From sequence record PZ789432.1: a stretch of DNA of 44,996 nt, one strand, 5' to 3'. The notes below the pieces were generated by a model. That model saw nothing but the letters and a program-made list of their open reading frames with translations, was not told the DNA's origin and did not search any database. Below are positions 6,157 to 18,806 of this stretch, piece after piece. The position numbers and the translations under genes were made by a program. The first letter of the stretch is position 1. Every line of letters begins with the position of its first letter. The stretch is from a phage.

Positions 6157-6179
6157 ATTTACCGGACACTATAGGATAA
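6157..6179 (+). promoter_or_regulatory. phage RNAP promoter (atttaccggacactatagg)
   Basis: Matches the genome-wide consensus ATTTACYGGACACTATAG; predicted +1 G at 6174. Confidence 0.7.
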
Positions 6180-6521: not shown

Positions 6522-6740
6522 ATGGCTAAATACAGAATCAAGACCTGTTTAAATAGTCACGGGCAAGAATTCTACGTAGTGCAACGTAAAGTATTAGGCT
6601 TAATATGGCTCACTTGTATGATGCCTATTGGCTATACTGATACAGAGGCTATCTTCTGCACCGAAAGGGATGCAAAGAAGTTTATCTCTAAGCGTAGAAA
6701 AGCTGACTCTTACCAACCTAGAATTATTAAGGTGAACTAA
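6522..6740 (+). CDS. hypothetical protein (72 aa)
   Basis: ORF track; between gene 1.1-like and primase-helicase. Confidence 0.55.
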   Translation: MAKYRIKTCLNSHGQEFYVVQRKVLGLIWLTCMMPIGYTDTEAIFCTERDAKKFISKRRKADSYQPRIIKVN

Positions 6741-8728
6741 TGGCTATTATTAATAACATCCCGTGCCCTGCCTGTCAAAAGAATGGACATGATATTACTG
6801 GCAACCATCTTATGATATTTGAGGATGGCGCTGGTTACTGTAACCGTGGTCACTTCCATGATAATGGTAAGCCTTATTACCATAAGCCAGAGGGTGGTAT
6901 CGAGATAACCGAATTGCCTATTACTGGCAATATCAAATATACACCTTCTCAATTCAAAGAAATGGAGAAGGAAGGGAAGATAAGCGACCCTAAGCTACGC
7001 GCCATCGCACTTGGTGGTATGCGTATGAAAGATCGTTGGGAGGTCATGAATGAGCAAGAAAGGGCAGACCAAGAAGCAGAGTGGAAGCTTGATGTTGAAT
7101 GGTTCCTCACGCTTAAGCGTAAGAACCTTGTATCCCGTCACATTCGAGGTGACATCGCAGCAATGTACGATGTGCGCGTTGGACACGATGAAGAGGGAAG
7201 AGTCAACCGTCACTATTATCCACGATATGAAAAGGGTGTGCTTGTTGGAGCAAAATGCCGGACGTTGCCGAAGGATTTTAAGTTCGGACACCTAGGTAAA
7301 CTCTTTGGTATGCAAGACCTTTTCGGTATGAACACTTTGTCTCACGTGTTAGACAAGGGGAGACGAAAGGATTGCTTGCTTATTGTAGGCGGTGAACTTG
7401 ATGCACTAGCAGCGCAGCAGATGCTCCTTGATTCTGCCAAGGGTACTAAGTGGGAAGGCCAGCCATACCATGTATGGTCTGTCAACAAAGGCGAGTCTTG
7501 TCTTGAAGAGATAGTGCAAAACCGTGAGCATATCGCCCAATTCAAGAAGATTATATGGGGTTTTGATGGAGATGAGGTAGGGCAGAAGCAGAATCAGCAA
7601 GCGGCTCGCCTGTTTCCTGGCAAATCCTATATCCTTGAATACCCCTCTGGTTGCAAAGATGCTAACAAGGCATTGATGGCTGGCAAGGCTAAAGAGTTTG
7701 TAGATGCATGGTTTAATGCCAAGTCATCTGATGAAGTCTTTGGTAGCCAGATTAAATCTATCGCATCTCAAAGGGATAAGCTCAAGGCTGCACGTCCAGA
7801 GCAAGGACTATCATGGCCTTGGCCTAAGCTGAACAAGGTCACGCTAGGTATTCGTAAGAACCAACTTATCATTGTAGGCGCAGGCTCTGGTGTAGGTAAG
7901 ACTGAGTTCCTTCGTGAAGTAGTTAAGCACCTCATTGAAGAACACGGTGAATCTGTAGGCATCATTTCTACAGAAGACCCGATGGTCAAGGTGTCCCGTG
8001 CTTTTATCGGCAAGTGGATTGATAAGCGCATTGAGTTACCGCCAACCAACGACCCGAAAGAAGATGGATACCGTGAGGTGTTCGACTACACCGAGGAAGA
8101 GGCTAACGCCGCCATTGATTATGTAGCTGATACAGGTAAGCTGTTTGTAGCTGACCTAGAGGGTGACTATTCGATGGAAAAGGTAGAGCAAACTTGCCTA
8201 GAGTTTGAGGCTATGGGCATTTCTAATATCATCATTGATAACTTAACGGGGATTAAATTAGATGAGCGTGCTTTTGGTGGGAAGGTTGGTGCACTTGATG
8301 AATGCGTCAAGCGGATTGGTACTATCAAAGACCGACACCCGGTTACTATATTCCTTGTATCACACCTTACACGTCCTCCGGCAAACCGTACCCAACACGA
8401 AGAAGGTGGCGAGGTTATCCTTTCTGACTTCCGAGGCTCAGGCGCTATCGGATTCTGGGCATCTTACGCCTTGGGGATTGAGCGTAATACAAGAGCTGAA
8501 ACGCTTGACGAAAGGACTACCACGTACATCTCATGTGTCAAAGACCGCGACCAAGGAATATTTTCCGGTACTCGTATAATGCTTAAAGGTGATATTGCTA
8601 CTGGTCGATTACGTGAACCAGAGCAAAGATCTCGACCGTTTGATACTGGTGCTCCAAAAGAACAAACTGTACCAGAAGAAGTAGTGGATAAAGGAGGATT
8701 TATTGCTGACGAAGTTGAAGAGTTTTGA
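6740..8728 (+). CDS. DNA primase/helicase (T7 gp4-like)
   Basis: 662 aa; N-terminal zinc ribbon CPACQ...CNRGH; Walker A VGAGSGVGKTEF; acidic C-terminus ending EEF. Confidence 0.93.
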   Translation: MAIINNIPCPACQKNGHDITGNHLMIFEDGAGYCNRGHFHDNGKPYYHKPEGGIEITELPITGNIKYTPSQFKEMEKEGKISDPKLRAIALGGMRMKDRWEVMNEQERADQEAEWKLDVEWFLTLKRKNLVSRHIRGDIAAMYDVRVGHDEEGRVNRHYYPRYEKGVLVGAKCRTLPKDFKFGHLGKLFGMQDLFGMNTLSHVLDKGRRKDCLLIVGGELDALAAQQMLLDSAKGTKWEGQPYHVWSVNKGESCLEEIVQNREHIAQFKKIIWGFDGDEVGQKQNQQAARLFPGKSYILEYPSGCKDANKALMAGKAKEFVDAWFNAKSSDEVFGSQIKSIASQRDKLKAARPEQGLSWPWPKLNKVTLGIRKNQLIIVGAGSGVGKTEFLREVVKHLIEEHGESVGIISTEDPMVKVSRAFIGKWIDKRIELPPTNDPKEDGYREVFDYTEEEANAAIDYVADTGKLFVADLEGDYSMEKVEQTCLEFEAMGISNIIIDNLTGIKLDERAFGGKVGALDECVKRIGTIKDRHPVTIFLVSHLTRPPANRTQHEEGGEVILSDFRGSGAIGFWASYALGIERNTRAETLDERTTTYISCVKDRDQGIFSGTRIMLKGDIATGRLREPEQRSRPFDTGAPKEQTVPEEVVDKGGFIADEVEEF

Positions 8729-9191
8729 GGCAGCAGGATATACCATCAAGGAGGATGGTACTATCCTTAACCCTAAAGGTGTAATACTTAAACCGAGCCA
8801 ATCAGGAAGGAAATTAAAGTATTTATATGTAAGTTGGAGACATCAAGGAAGAAGAGTAACAGAGCTTGTACACAGATTGGTTGCTAAGAAGTACATACCC
8901 AACCCACACAGTTTACCAGAAATTCATCATAAAGACTTTAACCCTCTTAATTGTCATAAAGACAATCTTGAATGGACAGATGGTAAGACTAATTGTGAGT
9001 ATAGTTATGCAAGGGTAGAAGCTGCACTTGCACGTCATGCTACTTTATTGTCACCTGATGGCATTAAGTACGACATATTTAATGTTCGTAAATTCTGCCG
9101 CGAACATGGCCTCAATCCACCTAGTGTATTTGAGGTGCTTAGTGGTAAACGGAAGTCACATAAAGGGTGGACTATTTACCGGACACTATAG
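8703..9191 (+). CDS. HNH homing endonuclease
   Basis: 162 aa; EIHHKDFNPLNCHKDNLEW HNH motif. No in-frame ATG; starts at TTG 8703 six nt after AAGGAGG, inside the last 26 nt of the helicase gene. Confidence 0.8.
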   Translation: MLTKLKSFEAAGYTIKEDGTILNPKGVILKPSQSGRKLKYLYVSWRHQGRRVTELVHRLVAKKYIPNPHSLPEIHHKDFNPLNCHKDNLEWTDGKTNCEYSYARVEAALARHATLLSPDGIKYDIFNVRKFCREHGLNPPSVFEVLSGKRKSHKGWTIYRTL

Positions 9192-9196
9192 AAGAG
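9174..9196 (+). promoter_or_regulatory. phage RNAP promoter (atttaccggacactatagaagag)
   Basis: Consensus match; +1 G at 9191; overlaps the HNH stop codon. Confidence 0.75.
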
Positions 9197-9225
9197 ACAA
9201 CCTTTGACGATGAACAGGAGTTTTA

Positions 9226-9387
9226 ATGGAAATTATTAAACCAGTATTGAATATCGGTATTGAGATCCTATTCATGCTTGTGATCGCAGATTATGCTGCA
9301 CGATATGGATTCAAGAAAGCTGTGAAACTTATCGTTGCATCTGGTTTTCTTATGTCAATGTTCTTTATTGTAACACGCCTTATCTAG
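9226..9387 (+). CDS. hypothetical small membrane protein (53 aa)
   Basis: ATG 9226 with SD CAGGAG; hydrophobic throughout. Confidence 0.4.
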   Translation: MEIIKPVLNIGIEILFMLVIADYAARYGFKKAVKLIVASGFLMSMFFIVTRLI

Positions 9388-9404
9388 TGTATTTATCAGG
9401 GCTT

Positions 9405-9420
9405 GTCTCACATGTGAGAC
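9405..9420. repeat. 16-bp perfect palindrome GTCTCACATGTGAGAC in a terminator-like context
   Basis: Flanks extend the pairing (gcttgtctcaca/tgtgagacaggc), followed by tcttatt. Confidence 0.8.
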
Positions 9421-9459
9421 AGGCTCTTATTAAGTACATTAAATAACTGGAGATTGATT

Positions 9460-10143
9460 ATGTATAAATTAGTATTGAATGTAGGTGATTATGTTCGTAA
9501 CATCAATGAAGCCTCACGTCGTTATCGTTGCCGTGGTGTAGTGGCTCGTGTAAGTGAGAACATGTATCATGTAGAATATGATGATGGTATTAAGGCTTCT
9601 TATCACAAGAAAACCGCACATAAATATCTTGAAAAGGTTGTAGAGGTAAACAATCAATGTAAGTGCATACATGATGAGGTTTGCGATAAATGTGCTCGCC
9701 AGATGCTTAAGAATTTCCTAGCCCCTCTTTATTATGGTGCTGGTCCTCAAACACTAGCAGAGTACATGGCAGAAAAGAAAACCACACTCAAGAAAGAGCG
9801 TCGCAATGTAATCACTGGTAAGACTCAAAGTGAGATGATTAAGCAATGTGGCACTGCATTAGGTGTTACACAGTTCAATACTCGTGCATTGGGTAAATCC
9901 ACAGGGCAAGCTATGGTGAAAATTGGTGAAGCTATGATGCAACCAAATGTACCTGTGCGAATCGTGGATATTGACCATGCAATCACAGAGCATGGTACAC
10001 CACGCCGTGTAGCTAACAATCATTTTGCCGACACTATAGAAGACATTATTCGTAAGCAAGGGTTGAAGGGTCTTCACATCTTAAATGGTGAAGAATTACT
10101 GTACCTACCTATCGTTACTGAAGAAACCTACGTGAATATCTAA
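9460..10143 (+). CDS. hypothetical protein (227 aa)
   Basis: ORF track 9454..10143 (TTG); first ATG at 9460 with SD GGAG; contains a Cys cluster CKCIHDEVCDKC. Confidence 0.7.
   Translation: MYKLVLNVGDYVRNINEASRRYRCRGVVARVSENMYHVEYDDGIKASYHKKTAHKYLEKVVEVNNQCKCIHDEVCDKCARQMLKNFLAPLYYGAGPQTLAEYMAEKKTTLKKERRNVITGKTQSEMIKQCGTALGVTQFNTRALGKSTGQAMVKIGEAMMQPNVPVRIVDIDHAITEHGTPRRVANNHFADTIEDIIRKQGLKGLHILNGEELLYLPIVTEETYVNI
10022..10044 (+). promoter_or_regulatory. phage RNAP promoter located inside a CDS (ttttgccgacactatagaagac)
   Basis: Core GACACTATAGAAGA identical to the consensus; lies within 9460..10143. Confidence 0.5.
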
Positions 10144-10153
10144 GGAGTTAATC

Positions 10154-10372
10154 ATGACTAAAGTATTAATTTATATGCGTGGACCTCATAAATGCTATGC
10201 AGTTGTAGCACCAAATGGTGTTAAGCCCTATAGTACTTCAAAAGGATTGGCATTAATAGGTGCTAGTAGTAGTGCAAGTTTCCAAATGGAACTTTTTGGT
10301 CATTGGACTGAATGGCAATTCCGTGAGGATTTTAAAGTCATTGGCAGCTTCATGGTGAAACATGCAGAATAA
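10154..10372 (+). CDS. hypothetical protein (72 aa)
   Basis: ORF track; strong SD AAGGAG upstream. Confidence 0.65.
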   Translation: MTKVLIYMRGPHKCYAVVAPNGVKPYSTSKGLALIGASSSASFQMELFGHWTEWQFREDFKVIGSFMVKHAE

Positions 10373-10385
10373 ACATAGTCTTAAA

Positions 10386-10538
10386 ATGTTCGATGGTCAT
10401 GAAGACCTGCAAGCCAAGATTACTAACCAAGCCTTCCTGTTCGCACAGTTAACTATGGCTGAAGCAAAGAAGAATAGCCTGACGCGTGAACAGGTTATCA
10501 AGGAAAGTGAAGTGAAACGTAAGATTCGCAGTCGATAA
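10386..10538 (+). CDS. hypothetical small protein (50 aa)
   Basis: ATG 10386; below ORF-track cutoff; followed by a palindrome. Confidence 0.35.
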   Translation: MFDGHEDLQAKITNQAFLFAQLTMAEAKKNSLTREQVIKESEVKRKIRSR

Positions 10539-10548
10539 GTCAAGGGTT

Positions 10549-10564
10549 GTCTCACACGTGAGAC
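10549..10564. repeat. 16-bp palindrome GTCTCACACGTGAGAC in a terminator-like context
   Basis: Extended stem ggttgtctcac/gtgagacagcc followed by tttcatc. Confidence 0.8.
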
Positions 10565-10595
10565 AGCCTTTCATCATATTGATTGGAGGTGCATT

Positions 10596-10703
10596 ATGCC
10601 ACGTGATTATGATTCTGATTGGGACTATTATGACTCAATGAATCCAAAACCCGAACGTTCAGATGATTACTACGAAACAGAGGCAATGTATGAAGACTAT
10701 TAA
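10596..10703 (+). CDS. hypothetical small acidic protein (35 aa)
   Basis: ATG 10596 six nt after GGAGG; MPRDYDSDWDYYDSMNPKPERSDDYYETEAMYEDY. Confidence 0.3.
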   Translation: MPRDYDSDWDYYDSMNPKPERSDDYYETEAMYEDY

Positions 10704-10908
10704 ATTAAGCAAGGTTTGCTCTTGCGGTAAAGGCTATCGCAGTCGTATTGATGGTAAGTGTGGACATTGTAGGTCTAAGAAAGAGGCTGCTTTGTTTTAC
10801 AAATACCACAATGAACTCTCCTATAACTACCCTCATCTAACACCTAATTCTTTATTAGGACTTGGTTATAGGGCTAAATACTTTGGAGCAATCTATGAAA
10901 TCAATTGA
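10690..10908 (+). CDS. hypothetical zinc-ribbon protein (72 aa)
   Basis: ORF track 10663..10908; ATG 10690 preferred (GAGG 6 nt upstream); CSCGKG...CGHC motif. Confidence 0.5.
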   Translation: MKTIKLSKVCSCGKGYRSRIDGKCGHCRSKKEAALFYKYHNELSYNYPHLTPNSLLGLGYRAKYFGAIYEIN

Positions 10909-11380
10909 TTGGAAGAAGGAAGCGGAAGGGCGCATCCTAGTTATGGACGCCGAGGCGAAAGGTCTACTTGATGCTATACGCTATGGTCATCGTGAAGACG
11001 TGCATATCATCTGCTGTATGGACCTGTTGACTACAGAGGAGTTTCTCTTCTTCGACCCGTATGAGATGCGTGACCCTGAAGCAAGAGAACGCCTGAAGGA
11101 ATGGGAAGGTCATCAAGATGGTGACTTGGTTGATGGTGTTAACTTCCTGAAGCATTGTGAAGCTATTGTGTCACAGAACTTCCTAGGGTATGACGGACTT
11201 CTCTTTGAGAAAGCATTCCCTGATATTTGGAAGGGCTTTAACTATACCGAGAAGCGCGGTAAGGGCAGACTCCGTGCTGACCTGTGTCCGGTGCGAGTCA
11301 TGGATACGCTGGTGATGAGTCGCCTGTTAAACCCAGATAAGACGCCTTCCTCCGCAAGCATATGCCAAAGGTATGGGTAA
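10895..11380 (+). CDS. DNA polymerase (Pol I family), fragment 1 of 4: 3'-5' exonuclease domain; frame-disrupted
   Basis: ORF track 10862..11380 (TTG), first ATG 10895; Exo motifs ILVMDAEAKGL and NFLGYDGLLFEKAF; VMDTLVMSRLL parallels T7 gp5 CIDTLVLSRLI. Homology continues in another frame. Confidence 0.85.
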   Translation: MKSIDWKKEAEGRILVMDAEAKGLLDAIRYGHREDVHIICCMDLLTTEEFLFFDPYEMRDPEARERLKEWEGHQDGDLVDGVNFLKHCEAIVSQNFLGYDGLLFEKAFPDIWKGFNYTEKRGKGRLRADLCPVRVMDTLVMSRLLNPDKTPSSASICQRYG

Positions 11381-11786
11381 CGTCGCCCCTCACTCAATTG
11401 AGGCGCACGGCATCCGTATAGGCCGCTATAAACCGGAGAACGAGGACTGGTCTAAACTAACTGACCACATGGTTCACCGTGTACGTGAGGACGTGGCGAT
11501 TGGTCGTGACTTGTTCCTCTGGCTCTTTAACGGGGAATGGATGGAGCATAAACGCCGTGGCGTGAATAAACGCACGGGCCTAGGCATTGAGACAGCCTTC
11601 CACATGGAGTCCATTGTGGCGCTGGAGATGAGCCGTCAGGCCGAGCGGGGGTTCCGTCTGGACATCGACAAGGCTTTGGCCCGATGCGAAGAATTGGACG
11701 CTAAGATTGATGAGACAGTCGCAGCGTTCCGCCCTCACATGCCTATGCGTATCAAGTCTAAACCTTTTAAACCGGAAGAAAAGTAA
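11373..11786 (+). CDS. DNA polymerase, fragment 2 of 4; frame-disrupted
   Basis: HSIEAHGIRIGRYK parallels T7 gp5 HALEAWGYRLGEMK; the frame is open upstream from 11331, so the shift lies near 11335..11372. Confidence 0.8.
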   Translation: MGNVAPHSIEAHGIRIGRYKPENEDWSKLTDHMVHRVREDVAIGRDLFLWLFNGEWMEHKRRGVNKRTGLGIETAFHMESIVALEMSRQAERGFRLDIDKALARCEELDAKIDETVAAFRPHMPMRIKSKPFKPEEK

Positions 11787-12445
11787 TGAAGTATGCCAAC
11801 GCGCAAATGAGTATGGAGCTAGCAACAATATACCTACTGTCCTTGACCCCTCACACTTTCTTCATGCCGAGAGACGAGGAGATCGCAAGACAGTATGGAG
11901 AGCTTGTCACTACTAAGTCTGGTGATTGGTCGGCTAGTGTTAAGAAAGACTTTCCTCACCTTAGAGGAAACCGTAATGACACGCCAAGCATCAAGTGGAT
12001 TGGCGCTTACTCGCCTGTTACTTTCGAAGAGATTCCCTTGGGTAACAGGGATACAGTTAAGCAAGTGCTCTATGATTATGGATGGAAAGGTGTTGAATTT
12101 AACGATACCGAGCAAGCGCATCTCGATGAGTACGGAGTGTTACCCAAACCTTGGAGTGGTAAGATAAATGAAAAGTCCCTCACTTTATGGCAAGAAAGAG
12201 CCGCACGTGAAGGTAAAACAGTACCTGATTGGTGCTTGGGTATCGCTGCATGGTACATACTCGTATCCCGTCGTGGTCAGATACTCAACCGTGGTGACGT
12301 TGAAGCCTTCAACGAGAAGGGGAACGTGGCCCTCGCAGGCTGGTGTACGAAAGTGTCGCGGCCTTGTACCTGTAGCATTCAACAAGGAGCTAGGAATCAA
12401 TGCGCAGCAATACTACGAGAGGTACGGATGTTGGCCTACGTCTGA
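11786..12445 (+). CDS. DNA polymerase, fragment 3 of 4; frame-disrupted
   Basis: Back in the frame of fragment 1; polymerase-like over its N-terminal two thirds. Confidence 0.7.
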   Translation: MKYANAQMSMELATIYLLSLTPHTFFMPRDEEIARQYGELVTTKSGDWSASVKKDFPHLRGNRNDTPSIKWIGAYSPVTFEEIPLGNRDTVKQVLYDYGWKGVEFNDTEQAHLDEYGVLPKPWSGKINEKSLTLWQERAAREGKTVPDWCLGIAAWYILVSRRGQILNRGDVEAFNEKGNVALAGWCTKVSRPCTCSIQQGARNQCAAILREVRMLAYV

Positions 12446-13448
12446 CAAAGATGACGGAGAGTGGCGTGTTCCAGCTGTTGCTATTAGTATTGGCACTTCT
12501 ACGTTCCGTATGCGTCATCGTAACGTGGTTAATATTCCTGCCCGTGGCTTGTATCCTTTACGTGATTTATTCATAGCAGGGAAAGGCAAGCTAATCCTTG
12601 GTTGTGACGGTGCAGGTCTTGAACTGCGTGTCCTGTCTCACTTCATGAATGACCCTGAGTACCAAGAGATTGTACTGCACGGTGATATTCATACGCATAA
12701 CCAGATGAAGGCTGGTCTTCCTAAGCGTGATATGGCGAAGACGTTTATATACGCCTTCCTCTATGGTTCTGGTATAGCCAACCTTGCAGCAGTCTGCGGT
12801 GTTACTGAGGAAGAAATGAAGGAAGTTGTGGCAAGATTCGAGATTGAACTACCGTCTCTTGCACGTCTTCGTGAGAATGTTATCGCACAAGGTAACAAGT
12901 TTGGCTACCTGCAAGCACCTGATGGGCATTGGGGTCGCATCCGCATGTCTGGTGGTGAACTTAAAGAGCACACGATGCTTAACGTATTACTCCAGATGAC
13001 TGGCTCTTTGTGTATGAAATATGCATTAGTCAAGGCATTTGCAGTAATGCGCAAGGAAGGTGTAGCTTTGGATGCTATGGGAAATCCTTGTGGTGTGGCT
13101 AACGTGCATGATGAAATCCAGATGGAAGTTCCTGAAGAGGAGGTCTTGTATCTTAACTACGACCTACCTTTCACCTTAGATGGGTTCGAAACAGAGAAGG
13201 CTGCTGTGAAAGCAGTTTTCGATGCAGAGGAGAAACGTGTTCATGTGGATTCTGAAGGACGTATGTGGTCTGCTGCAAACCTCGTTAGCGTTGATGCTGA
13301 TGCTGGTGTATTGCATTGCCAGCGCCGTTATCACCGTGCAGGTCATATCATTGCCGACGCCATGACTTGGGCAGGGCAGTATCTGAAGATGCGTTGCCCG
13401 ATGGCAGGAGAATATAAGATTGGCGCAAGCTGGAAGGAAACACACTGA
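12168..13448 (+). CDS. DNA polymerase, fragment 4 of 4: palm/fingers; frame-disrupted
   Basis: Motif A GCDGAGLELRVLSHF, TSTFRMRHRNVVNIP (T7 TGRATHAFPNLAQIP), KTFIYAFLYG, VHDEIQ. Reliable homology starts near 12430; the first ~260 nt of this ORF overlap fragment 3. Confidence 0.85.
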   Translation: MKSPSLYGKKEPHVKVKQYLIGAWVSLHGTYSYPVVVRYSTVVTLKPSTRRGTWPSQAGVRKCRGLVPVAFNKELGINAQQYYERYGCWPTSDKDDGEWRVPAVAISIGTSTFRMRHRNVVNIPARGLYPLRDLFIAGKGKLILGCDGAGLELRVLSHFMNDPEYQEIVLHGDIHTHNQMKAGLPKRDMAKTFIYAFLYGSGIANLAAVCGVTEEEMKEVVARFEIELPSLARLRENVIAQGNKFGYLQAPDGHWGRIRMSGGELKEHTMLNVLLQMTGSLCMKYALVKAFAVMRKEGVALDAMGNPCGVANVHDEIQMEVPEEEVLYLNYDLPFTLDGFETEKAAVKAVFDAEEKRVHVDSEGRMWSAANLVSVDADAGVLHCQRRYHRAGHIIADAMTWAGQYLKMRCPMAGEYKIGASWKETH

Positions 13449-16163: not shown

Positions 16164-16469
16164 ATGCCGACTATTAAATCTCGTTTAGTAGCAGACTATG
16201 TGTATGGTCGTGACTTAAAGTTAATGCAAGATTACTTTAAAGTAATCATCCTGCTGGATGGAGAAGTGTTTCACACTAAAACATTCACCCTTCCTGAATT
16301 GTTTGATTTAGGTTATTGGGGTTATACATATCAGGCCATAGCAGACAAGGTGCTACTCAGTGTATTAGAGGAGTGGCCTACATGCGACCAAACTTCGACT
16401 TCGGAGCTACAGTATCGGAAGACAATAACCTGTTGCTGTGGCCAACTGAAGGTAATAGAATCGCTTTAA
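16164..16469 (+). CDS. hypothetical protein (101 aa)
   Basis: ORF track; SD GGAG; 3' end overlaps the exonuclease start. Confidence 0.55.
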   Translation: MPTIKSRLVADYVYGRDLKLMQDYFKVIILLDGEVFHTKTFTLPELFDLGYWGYTYQAIADKVLLSVLEEWPTCDQTSTSELQYRKTITCCCGQLKVIESL

Positions 16470-17026
16470 TAGATGCTGACATGTTACCCTACATCGTAGG
16501 TTATACAATCAGTGACATGACTTATGTACGAGCCACAACTCGTGTTAAGTCAGGACAAGTCCCATCAATCAAAGATACACCTGAGTGTAAGCAAGCGTGT
16601 GACCGTGTGAACTCCTTGCTCAACTCTTGGGTGTATGCAGCAGAGTGTGATGCAGCTAAGTTATTCATGACGAAATCAGAAGCTAACTTCCGTGTTCGCC
16701 TAGCCTTCACCAAGCCTTACAAGGGTCAACGTAAGACCGAGAAGCCTCCGTTCTTCTATGAATTGCGAGAGCATCTCTTAGAGGTTCATGGTGCAATCTT
16801 GGCAGATGGAGAAGAGGCTGATGACCTCATGAGCATTGCACAATGGGACAGCCACCGCCGCTTCCAGCAAGCTACAGGTAACGAGTTCCCTATCGGTAGT
16901 CCAGAGCATAAAGCATTCTCTGATACTTGCATCGTTTCCTTAGATAAGGATTTGATGATTGTTCCCGGTTGGCATCTTCAGCCGGGTCAAGAGAAGAAAT
17001 GGGTTAGAGCCTATGGGTTGGCTTGA
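16382..17026 (+). CDS. 5'-3' exonuclease (T7 gp6-like), fragment 1 of 2; frame-disrupted
   Basis: ORF track 16316..17026 (non-ATG); ATG 16382 after GAGGAG; IALIDADMLPY, EEADDLMSIAQ and IVSLDKDLMIVPGW parallel T7 gp6. Confidence 0.85.
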   Translation: MRPNFDFGATVSEDNNLLLWPTEGNRIALIDADMLPYIVGYTISDMTYVRATTRVKSGQVPSIKDTPECKQACDRVNSLLNSWVYAAECDAAKLFMTKSEANFRVRLAFTKPYKGQRKTEKPPFFYELREHLLEVHGAILADGEEADDLMSIAQWDSHRRFQQATGNEFPIGSPEHKAFSDTCIVSLDKDLMIVPGWHLQPGQEKKWVRAYGLA

Positions 17027-17411
17027 GCTACGCCGTAAGGCTAATGGTCAGGTTAAAGACCTTAAAGGTGCTGGCCTCATGTTTCATTATGCACAGATGA
17101 TTATCGGTGATGATATTGATAACTATGCTGGCATACCTGGACGTGGTGCTAAATACGCCTATGATCTTCTCAAAGATTGTAAGACAGAGAAAGAGTTGTA
17201 CATGGCAGTGCTTGGTGCTTACAAGGCTAAGTTCGGACATGGACAAGTTAAGATTAAGAATTACCGAGGTGGTTATCGTATCGGCAAGGCTTTTGACCTG
17301 ATGCTCGAATGTGGTCGCCTAGCGCACATGGCAAGATTCAAAGGTGATATATGGCGAGCCGATAAGAACCCAATCTTGTGGGGAGATGATGCGGAATGGT
17401 TAGCAAATTAA
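16959..17411 (+). CDS. 5'-3' exonuclease, fragment 2 of 2; frame-disrupted
   Basis: MFHYAQMIIGDDIDNYAGIPGRG parallels T7 gp6 HLFQTIKGDITDGYSGIAGWG; the frame changes near 16990..17026. Confidence 0.8.
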   Translation: MFPVGIFSRVKRRNGLEPMGWLELRRKANGQVKDLKGAGLMFHYAQMIIGDDIDNYAGIPGRGAKYAYDLLKDCKTEKELYMAVLGAYKAKFGHGQVKIKNYRGGYRIGKAFDLMLECGRLAHMARFKGDIWRADKNPILWGDDAEWLAN

Positions 17412-17806
17412 AATCATCGGAGGTAGCAGCTTATAAGAGGGATTTGCTAGAGAAGCAAGGGTGGAAGTGCCCACTATGTGGCGGCAGTCTCAAGGCTGTT
17501 ACTCCTATAAACCGTGTACTTGACCATGACCATGAGACAGGATTCTGCCGTGCTGTTGTATGCCGAGGCTGCAATGGTGCAGAAGGAAAGATTAAGGGTG
17601 TTATCTCTGGTTACGGTAAGGCTGGTAACAACCGTTACTTCCAGCTTCAATGGTTAGAGCGACTATATGAATACTGGAAGTTACATAGTACGCCTCAGAC
17701 AGATAAGTTATATCACAAACATCAAACGGAGGCAGAGAAGCGCGAGGCTAAGAACCGTAAGGCACGCCTTGCTTATGCAAGAAAGAAGGAGGTTAAAGTT
17801 GGGTAA
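17396..17806 (+). CDS. endonuclease VII-like Holliday junction resolvase
   Basis: 136 aa; GWKCPLCGG...LDHDHETGFCRAVVCRGCNGAEGKIKG parallels T4 endo VII (KCLICQ...HLDHDHELNG...VRGLLCNLCNAAEGQ). Confidence 0.8.
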   Translation: MVSKLKSSEVAAYKRDLLEKQGWKCPLCGGSLKAVTPINRVLDHDHETGFCRAVVCRGCNGAEGKIKGVISGYGKAGNNRYFQLQWLERLYEYWKLHSTPQTDKLYHKHQTEAEKREAKNRKARLAYARKKEVKVG

Positions 17807-18806
17807 GCTTCGCAGCTTGTACAAAGACTCCGAGGTACTTGATGCAATCGAGCAAGCTACCGACGAGAAAGGTAATGTTAATTATAATGAGATGGCACGT
17901 GTATTATCGTGTCACCCTGTGGGTAAGAAGATTACCCGCCAGTTGGCTCGATACTGGCATGGTCAATTCAAGAAGACCAAGAAGAATGGTGATTATTACC
18001 AGACCCTTCTGCAAGAAGATAAGCGTATCAAAGAAGAGCGTAAGCTCAGGACTCCTGACCGCTACGAGGATTTGGCTATTGTACCATTGCCTGACTCGCC
18101 TCATCGAAGTGTACTGGTAATCCCTGATACTCATGCACCTTATGAGCATCCAGATACCTTAGAGTTCCTTGCAGCAGTCGCGGCACGTTACCGTCCAGAT
18201 ACAGTGGTTCACTTAGGAGATGAGGCAGATAAACACGCCCTCTCCTTCCATGACTCTGACCCTAATCTGGATAGTGCTGGCATGGAGCTAGAGAAGGCTC
18301 GTGTCTTCATGCACAAGTTGCACAAGATGTTCCCTGTGATGCGCCTGTGTCATTCTAATCACGGCTCTATGCACTTCCGTAAGGCAAGCGCCAAGGGTAT
18401 TCCAGTGCAATATCTTCGCACCTACCGTGAAGTCTTTTTCCCAAATGGAGGTGGCGACCAGTGGGATTGGCAGCATACACATGTTCTTGAGTTGCCGAAT
18501 GGTGAACAAGTGGCATTCAAGCATCAACCTGCTGGCTCTGTCCTAGCAGATGCAGCGCATGAGCGTATGAACCTTGTGTGTGGTCACTTGCACGGTAAGA
18601 TGTCTGTGGAGTACGCACGTAATACACATGAACAGTATTGGGCTGTGCAAGGTGGCTGCTTAATTGATGAGTCATCCCGTGCATTTGCCTATGGGCGTGA
18701 GTCTAAATACAAGCCAGCATTAGGTTGTGTGGTTATTCTGGAGGGTGTGCCTCATATTGTCCCGATGCAAACCAATAGCGACAACCGTTGGATTGGCAAG
18801 ATTTAG
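17799..18806 (+). CDS. calcineurin-like metallophosphoesterase
   Basis: ORF track 17667..18806 (frame open upstream); motifs VIPDTHAP, LGDEAD, HSNHG, GHLHG. Likely start TTG 17799 six nt after AAGGAGG; first ATG is at 17892. Confidence 0.75.
   Translation: MGKLRSLYKDSEVLDAIEQATDEKGNVNYNEMARVLSCHPVGKKITRQLARYWHGQFKKTKKNGDYYQTLLQEDKRIKEERKLRTPDRYEDLAIVPLPDSPHRSVLVIPDTHAPYEHPDTLEFLAAVAARYRPDTVVHLGDEADKHALSFHDSDPNLDSAGMELEKARVFMHKLHKMFPVMRLCHSNHGSMHFRKASAKGIPVQYLRTYREVFFPNGGGDQWDWQHTHVLELPNGEQVAFKHQPAGSVLADAAHERMNLVCGHLHGKMSVEYARNTHEQYWAVQGGCLIDESSRAFAYGRESKYKPALGCVVILEGVPHIVPMQTNSDNRWIGKI

Follow-up and report, generated by a model that had tools for sequence, protein, structure and literature searches.

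In the phage sequence record PZ789432.1, an open reading frame (ORF) for an HNH endonuclease begins inside the 3′ end of the primase-helicase gene. This locus raises the question of which gene gave sequence to the other: did the endonuclease borrow its translation signals from the helicase gene, or did the helicase receive its end from the endonuclease? The sequence analysed is one strand of 44,996 nt, read 5′ to 3′ and referred to below, at its full length, as the window. Its region 8200-9700 matches 104 phage records, mainly of Escherichia Vectrevirus (Autographiviridae, Molineuxvirinae), and PZ789432.1 is a K1E/SP6-like podophage, specifically a K1E-like Vectrevirus. We consider it likely that a free-standing I-HmuI-type HNH gene, carried in a 498-bp cassette, was inserted inside the ancestral helicase gene at the edge of a promoter (position -17), with homing as the presumed route. 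The alignments described below indicate that the helicase took its new C-terminus from this cassette, which reverses the direction of borrowing proposed in a first-pass annotation of this DNA; the homing insertion and the start codon called in that annotation both stand.

The features on which this account is built are the following.

6740-8728, + strand: primase-helicase gene (K1E gp9 homologue), 662 aa (ORF list; Pfam DnaB_C and Toprim_2)
8557-8675, + strand: divergent 3′ tract of the helicase gene, with ~50 mismatches to LI10P3 and 3 to PDP21P3
8676-9173 (boundary ±1 nt), + strand: 498-bp insert relative to endonuclease-free relatives (codon-level alignment)
8676-8728, + strand: substitute helicase tail, the first 53 nt of the insert, 17 codons plus TGA, with the end …EVVDKGGFIADEVEEF before the stop
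8691-8697, + strand: Shine-Dalgarno sequence AAGGAGG of the HNH gene, within the substitute helicase tail
8703-8705, + strand: TTG start codon of the HNH gene, the first start-type codon past the TAG at 8682
8703-9191, + strand: predicted I-HmuI-like HNH homing endonuclease ORF, 162 aa (phmmer, AlphaFold2, Foldseek and the ratio of non-synonymous to synonymous substitution rates, dN/dS)
9174-9226, + strand: displaced native helicase tail, with the end …LPDTIEETTFDDEQEF before the stop, 53/53 nt identical to K1E and LI10P3
9174-9196, + strand: K1E-type phage RNA-polymerase promoter, positions -17 to +6, with +1 at G 9191

Insert boundaries and the exchanged helicase tail

Alignment with HNH-free relatives had been suggested in the annotation as a way to define the insertion boundaries, and this comparison places the insert at 8676-9173. 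Between the window and LI10P3, which lacks the endonuclease, the helicase gene shows 0-3 differences per 100 bases (about 1%) over 6800-8556, with a single mismatch in 8030-8556, and positions 9174-10599 are 100% identical; the intervening 8557-9173 is divergent or absent in LI10P3. Relative to the endonuclease-free records the window is longer by 498 bp, and this extra sequence has the helicase codons V-P-E/D on its left and promoter position -17 on its right.

In K1E, LI10P3 and VEc3 the helicase reads through the promoter and ends …EVPDLPDTIEETTFDDEQEF before its stop (in short form …DLPDTIEETTFDDEQEF). An identical promoter sequence lies inside the helicase gene of endonuclease-free relatives, as the alignment shows, and their helicase ends 35 nt beyond the position of the HNH stop. 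In SP6, Kenya-K30 and UAB_Phi78 the helicase reads through an SP6-type promoter in the same manner and ends …DELGDTIE…EF. Since both the K1E-type and the SP6-type endonuclease-free relatives have a helicase that reads through the promoter, a promoter within the helicase tail is ancestral in both genera.

With its first 53 nt the cassette re-establishes the helicase frame. These 53 nt provide a substitute tail that ends …GGFIADEVEEF (…KGGFIADEVEEF) before the stop; like the native tail, it is acidic and has a terminal Phe. The two tails are equally long (17 codons and a stop), so that the helicase remains 662 aa long and its gene retains the length of K1E gp9, 1989 bp. The native 53 nt, comprising the promoter plus EETTFDDEQEF and the stop, are found intact on the far side of the HNH gene, where they now form the leader of the gp9.5 message and carry the gp9.5 ribosome-binding site. 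In the native-tail frame the sole possible start is GTG 9167, in a poor Shine-Dalgarno context, and the displaced tail is very probably untranslated. On this alignment the helicase gene is a hybrid, its body native and its C-terminal tail supplied by the cassette. The homologous protein T7 gp4 touches basic patches of the DNA polymerase with its acidic C-terminal tail, and processivity falls when this tail is deleted (PMC12593628). By homology, a replacement tail would be needed here because the T7 gp4 tail supports processivity.

The HNH protein

phmmer against the PDB matched I-HmuI (1u3e_M) with E=3.6e-9 over residues 40-158. An AlphaFold2 model of the protein (predicted local distance difference test, pLDDT, 84.3) was compared with the PDB by Foldseek, and 1u3e_M was again the sole significant match (E=2.5e-11, 163 aligned columns, full length); its template-modelling score is only 0.48, as is to be expected when a protein of several domains and elongated shape is modelled in the absence of DNA. 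Residues H76, N88 and N97 align with I-HmuI H75, N87 and N96. H76 and N88 do not vary among 17 homologues, in which N97 is conserved to at least 90%. These matches bear out the annotation's call of an HNH homing-endonuclease gene and assign it to the I-HmuI type.

Pairwise dN/dS across ten alleles, with the overlap region excluded, ranges from 0.04 to 0.26, which shows that purifying selection acts on the encoded protein. The protein is predicted to be an I-HmuI-type HNH homing endonuclease that is free-standing and not intron-encoded. An intron-encoded endonuclease was considered and rejected: an Rfam scan of 8000-10000 (E≤1) returned no intron of group I or II, the helicase ORF runs complete to a stop of its own, and the gap between the HNH stop and gp9.5 is only 34 nt. 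Within the window we found no other copy of this HNH gene.

The promoter encodes the C-terminal residues YRTL, which the model predicts poorly and which are missing from the alleles that lie beside SP6-type and L098-type promoters (L098 being an uncultured lineage described below). They appear incidental.

Distribution of the cassette and signs of mobility

The gene is an insertion, as the annotation had supposed, and most relatives lack it. The full-length region (at least 80% coverage) was found in 4 of 104 records in a search centred on Vectrevirus and in 3 of 116 in one centred on Zindervirus, duplicates included, and among some 100 related records the distinct genomes with the cassette number only about 5. 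The cassette is found on three backbones with different promoter specificity, namely K1E-type, SP6-type and L098-type. The Zindervirus phages BP12B and GRNsp03 have an HNH gene of 76% identity in the equivalent position; it starts with GTG, and their ORF ends …TGG ACT ATT TAG within the SP6-type promoter. In L098, whose helicase region is 72-74% identical to any record, the HNH ORF ends …ATT TAA in a third promoter type and is followed by a tail remnant, …TIEEVNF and a stop. The protein has a conserved C-terminal motif, KGW(T/H)I, whose Ile codon ATT coincides in every case with positions -17 to -15 of the promoter. The window, L092 and L098 all retain an intact native tail 3′ of the HNH gene.

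The divergent tract of ~120 bp lies only on the 5′ side of the insert and resembles the endonuclease-positive phage PDP21P3. It reads as a co-conversion tract that travelled with the cassette. The cassette is thus present in some and absent from other near-identical genomes, its boundaries are precise, and its 5′ flank carries a co-conversion signature.

A vertically inherited nuclease, non-mobile or domesticated as an accessory gene and lost in most lineages, with the mosaic produced by ordinary phage recombination, strikes us as rather improbable. Purifying selection would also fit a useful host function, T7-like phages recombine freely, and homing cleavage is here a prediction; however, the gene occurs sporadically over three diverged backbones, its insert has a sharp boundary at -17, the flanks outside 8557-9173 are 99.9-100% identical to those of the endonuclease-free LI10P3, with divergence on one side only, and the sole structural relative is a characterised homing endonuclease.

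Same-locus HNH genes have already been annotated in databases, as UCR91822.1 of Escherichia phage ULINTec6, as gp11 of BP12B, and as an "HNH endonuclease [Escherichia coli]" among the third-party-annotation (TPA) records of NCBI. A search of IMG/VR with a degenerate pattern for the junction ("KGWxI + promoter") returned BP12B only, and in JGI metagenomes the same pattern hit the helicase locus of one more Vectrevirus, besides a single chance match. General targeting of promoters by this endonuclease family was rejected, the junction being seen at no promoter outside the helicase locus in either collection. A protein search of IMG/VR for close relatives likewise gave BP12B only, the remainder being distant HNH genes at unrelated loci.

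Further rearrangements were seen at this locus. In the endonuclease-positive Vectrevirus contig L092 (positions 1189-1300), which lacks gp9.5, the displaced tail, EETNFDEESEF and a stop, directly abuts a conserved hairpin region. BP12B (L007, 1283-1320) has a hybrid promoter 3′ of the HNH gene, the left half of which is like the helicase-tail promoter; the right half (GGTGAGCGCAAGGGC…) comes from a second promoter-like site in the 3′ end of SP6 gene 11 (compared at L010 (SP6) 596 and 1297). A deletion of ~700-770 bp between the two promoter copies therefore suggests itself, which would have removed a small ORF and most of gene 11. In Era103 (L008, 804-1289) a different I-HmuI-like HNH gene, with 33% identity, lies right after the helicase stop, its ATG overlapping the TAA. 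In this subfamily, endonuclease genes thus seem to have landed repeatedly at the helicase 3′ end.

Translation signals of the HNH gene

All statements about the sequence itself in the first-pass annotation proved correct. The HNH ORF of 162 aa is preceded by an in-frame TAG at 8682 and holds no in-frame ATG throughout; the start-type codons in its frame begin with TTG 8703, followed by CTG 8706 and TTG 8715. The AAGGAGG at 8691-8697 is made by the helicase codons AAA GGA GGA (K-G-G), and a spacer of 5 nt (ATTTA) separates it from TTG 8703, which begins at the sixth base after it. The HNH gene overlaps the helicase gene by 26 nt, up to and including the helicase stop TGA at 8726-8728. At its other end the HNH stop, TAG 9189-9191, falls within the promoter at 9174-9196, the first 18 nt of which encode the end of the protein as five sense codons and the stop (I-Y-R-T-L). 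By comparison with the standard SP6 promoter, we take the G of this stop (9191) to be the transcription start, +1.

What fails is the claim that the insertion borrowed host-gene sequence for its translation signals. The segment that holds both the Shine-Dalgarno sequence and the TTG (8676-8728) is missing from all six HNH-free relatives examined, and is therefore part of the 498-bp insert, while the native tail persists at 9174-9226. The translation signals thus belong to the insert, embedded in the substitute tail in a different reading frame, and all that the endonuclease takes from the host promoter is its final codons with the stop. It is distinctly improbable that the HNH gene instead landed downstream of an intact helicase gene and that its 5′ end grew back into native helicase codons, co-opting a Shine-Dalgarno sequence and start there. 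Both signals do lie in helicase codons of the present genome, and the distant HNH gene of Era103 does directly follow a helicase stop, but this course of events is at odds with the native tail and promoter that remain 53/53 identical 3′ of the HNH gene, and with the lack of the Shine-Dalgarno segment in six of six endonuclease-free relatives.

AAGGAGG is a strong gene-start signal in the PZ789432.1 genome: it occurs in 14 copies on the + strand and 1 on the - strand, against ~4 expected from composition, and most + strand copies stand 4-9 nt ahead of a gene start. For the HNH gene itself, start sites were compared in ten alleles taken from phage records and metagenomic contigs. At the codon that corresponds to 8703, the window, PDP21P3, L092, L098 and L101 have TTG, L093 has ATG and Salmonella phage BP12B has GTG; in the alleles of ULINTec6, NIC06P3, L094 and L095 an ATG stands one codon downstream. 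Every allele (n=10) has a Shine-Dalgarno-like element 5-6 nt upstream of the start, and the HNH ORF overlaps the helicase up to its stop by 23-26 nt. The annotation had named an upstream ATG in relatives as the finding that would overturn its start call; because no such ATG occurs in any of the ten alleles, the TTG 8703 start stands. Gene calls in databases have the same start, and the NCBI TPA record, 99% identical, has the same 162-aa call. The combination of Shine-Dalgarno sequence and start is beyond chance, since AAGGAGG is enriched ahead of starts and ten independent alleles keep both elements at the equivalent place.

A start at CTG 8706 or TTG 8715, or a helicase-HNH fusion by a +1 shift at UUU UGA (8723-8728) into the HNH frame at GAG 8727, is extremely doubtful: the ATG of the ULINTec6-type alleles does align with CTG 8706, and UUU-UGA is a classic shift-prone stop context present in all alleles, but the Shine-Dalgarno sequence is 5 nt from 8703 and 17 nt from 8715, the L093 ATG and BP12B GTG fall exactly at codon 8703, the overlap encodes an N-terminal helix of the model (residues 2-10, pLDDT 86), and UUUUGA is already forced by dual coding, for helicase EF-stop and HNH SFE. 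A fusion by the +1 shift is in itself very unlikely. A programmed +1 frameshift of the prfB kind was rejected as a candidate: UUU UGA is present and the +1 frame is the HNH frame, but the AAGGAGG lies 25 nt upstream of the shift site, where a prfB-like shift expects it ~3 nt upstream.

A candidate regulatory hairpin at the start was also considered: an RNA fold of 8655-8765, computed for the window sequence, places the AAGGAGG in an 8-nt loop and the TTG in a weak, G-U-rich stem (z = -2.5); other alleles differ in sequence here. A second perfect AAGGAGG occurs inside the HNH ORF, in the region 8748-8757 (codons I-K-E-D-G), with an out-of-frame ATG at 8755 immediately after it that opens an ORF of only ~9 codons. 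This internal copy is probably non-functional, because its spacing to ATG 8755 is zero.

A model for expression and homing

Phage promoters lie upstream of the helicase gene at 6157 and 6342, and the HNH gene is situated between these and the promoter at 9174. In a scan of 8400-9600 for host-type promoters and intrinsic terminators around the HNH ORF, nothing stood above shuffled background. Because it has no promoter of its own, has the promoters at 6157 and 6342 upstream, and is preceded by no terminator detected in the scanned interval, the HNH gene is probably co-transcribed with the helicase. It would then be translated independently and weakly, from a strong Shine-Dalgarno sequence and a weak TTG. 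Homing endonucleases are usually expressed at a low level. In a mixed infection, helicase alleles that lack the endonuclease would be nicked or cut by the enzyme close to where tail and promoter meet, and repair would then copy the cassette together with ~120 bp of upstream helicase sequence. Such an insertion site would leave both helicase function and downstream transcription undisturbed.

We also raise, as a tentative and on balance unlikely idea, that the homing site is the promoter-encoding helicase tail itself, doubly constrained by RNA-polymerase recognition and by the essential acidic tail. A homing site of this kind would explain why the same -17 junction was invaded on three backbones with different promoter specificity.

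Several points weigh against the reading of the locus as a homing insertion that replaced the helicase tail. Gain of the cassette and its loss by allele replacement are not strictly separable from two sequences. The Pfam matches are below their gathering scores, both for HNH_3 (20.4 bits against 24.8) and for I-HmuI_NUMOD-like (20.2 against 27), so that Pfam by itself would leave the HNH domain uncalled. Some copies of the gene may be decaying: the database homologues P0013 and P0014, from other contigs, are frameshifted in the C-terminal third, into the frame of the window ORF 9028-9207, and would be either decaying endonuclease copies or assembly errors. The substitute and native tails are identical at 26 of 53 nt; the former could be a duplication of the native tail or derive from a donor lineage, and this level of identity could reflect shared constraint. 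Finally, the protein product, the nuclease activity and its target site are all to be read as predictions.

As read here, a selfish endonuclease gene has settled, without cost to the host, within the 3′ end of a gene essential for replication. The cassette would bring a replacement tail, hide a weak start within it, and stop short of the promoter for the downstream genes. For annotators, the alignments indicate that helicase C-termini are mosaic in these phages and that the overlapping non-ATG start call is correct here. Phages of the K1E and SP6 types serve in therapy and supply RNA polymerases, and for phage engineers the locus marks what looks like a naturally permissive insertion point, along with a candidate site-specific nuclease whose target should be easily mappable. 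The general understanding of homing endonucleases is unchanged.

Relation to known systems

I-HmuI of Bacillus phage SPO1 (PDB 1U3E) is the sole significant match by both sequence and fold over the full length. The two proteins share an N-terminal beta-sheet DNA-binding region, the HNH motif, a C-terminal helix-turn-helix (the Pfam I-HmuI_NUMOD-like region) and the catalytic His and Asn residues. However, I-HmuI resides in a group I intron of a DNA polymerase gene, whereas the HNH gene of the window is free-standing and lies in a helicase gene. Identity between them is ~30%, I-HmuI D74 is replaced by His, and nicking by the PZ789432.1 protein is a prediction from this likeness.

In architecture, the closest precedent is the endonuclease ORFs of fungal mitochondria that make gene hybrids, as in Allomyces macrogynus atp6 and in Glomus atp6, atp9, cox2 and nad3; these have an inserted foreign C-terminus fused in frame, an endonuclease ORF, and a displaced native C-terminus that is closer to relatives (PMC3630166). 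The window has a counterpart for each of these defining features, in the substitute tail (8676-8728), the HNH ORF (8703-9191) and the native tail (9174-9226). It differs in being a phage and not an organelle, in having an HNH nuclease instead of the endonuclease types of the fungal elements, in the replacement of a 17-codon segment, in the out-of-frame overlap of the endonuclease start with the tail, and in an insertion point at a promoter edge. Should the promoter-encoding tail indeed be the homing site, this would be the first phage counterpart of the fungal foreign-C-terminus endonuclease ORFs, with a phage promoter as part of the homing target.

Free-standing endonucleases of T-even phages (such as SegF and MobE) are said to spread by "intronless homing", and the nrdA gene of phage Aeh1 is reportedly split by mobE. 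These reportedly share with the present gene a free-standing position between or within essential DNA-metabolism genes, co-conversion of flanking markers and sporadic occurrence among close relatives. Those endonuclease genes, however, are said to lie between genes or to split a gene into two translated pieces, whereas here the interrupted gene appears to be completed by the cassette and the remnant untranslated. A gene in pieces of the Aeh1 nrdA-mobE type was rejected for this locus, as the downstream remnant has 17 codons and GTG 9167, in its poor context, as the only possible start.

The annotated HNH genes of ULINTec6 and BP12B are the same gene, at the same locus and with the same helicase overlap, but the database records merely name the ORF, without the substitute tail or the promoter-edge architecture. 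We found no published account of the arrangement in K1E-like or SP6-like phages.

Promoter, neighbouring genes and other features of the window

The SP6/K1E-type promoter motif ATTTACCGGACACTATAGAAGAG at 9174-9196 is one of 6 copies in the window, where 0 are expected. A near-identical promoter, TATTTACTGGACACTATAGG, has been used in vitro with an SP6-related polymerase (PMC13029058). Immediately downstream lies one further annotated feature.

9226-9387, + strand: gp9.5 homologue, 53 aa (ORF list, K1E comparison)

In endonuclease-free phages the gp9.5 ATG and the helicase stop share 1 nt. A strong hairpin, GGGCTTGTCTCACATGTGAGACAGGCTC, is present at 9392-9433, 3′ of gp9.5, and is conserved in all aligned relatives. 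The sole Rfam match to this hairpin was a miRNA and is spurious; the hairpin is probably an RNA-processing or terminator element.

The DNA polymerase gene (10862-13448) is split into four overlapping ORFs, with extra bases relative to LI10P3 and PDP21P3 at 11339 (+1), 11784 (+1), 11901-11904 (+4) and 12319 (+1). These are probably sequencing or assembly errors, or else the genome is defective. Several genes further downstream, in 16316-18806, also appear fragmented.

Two other small segments vary among these genomes. A 218-bp segment at 6528-6745, shared by the window and PDP21P3 and not found in LI10P3, holds a 72-aa ORF (6522-6740) that abuts the helicase ATG, making it a second small presence/absence gene, at the opposite end of the helicase gene. 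A 205-bp segment at 10699-10903, shared by the window and LI10P3 and not found in PDP21P3, makes up most of a Cys-rich 81-aa ORF (10663-10908).

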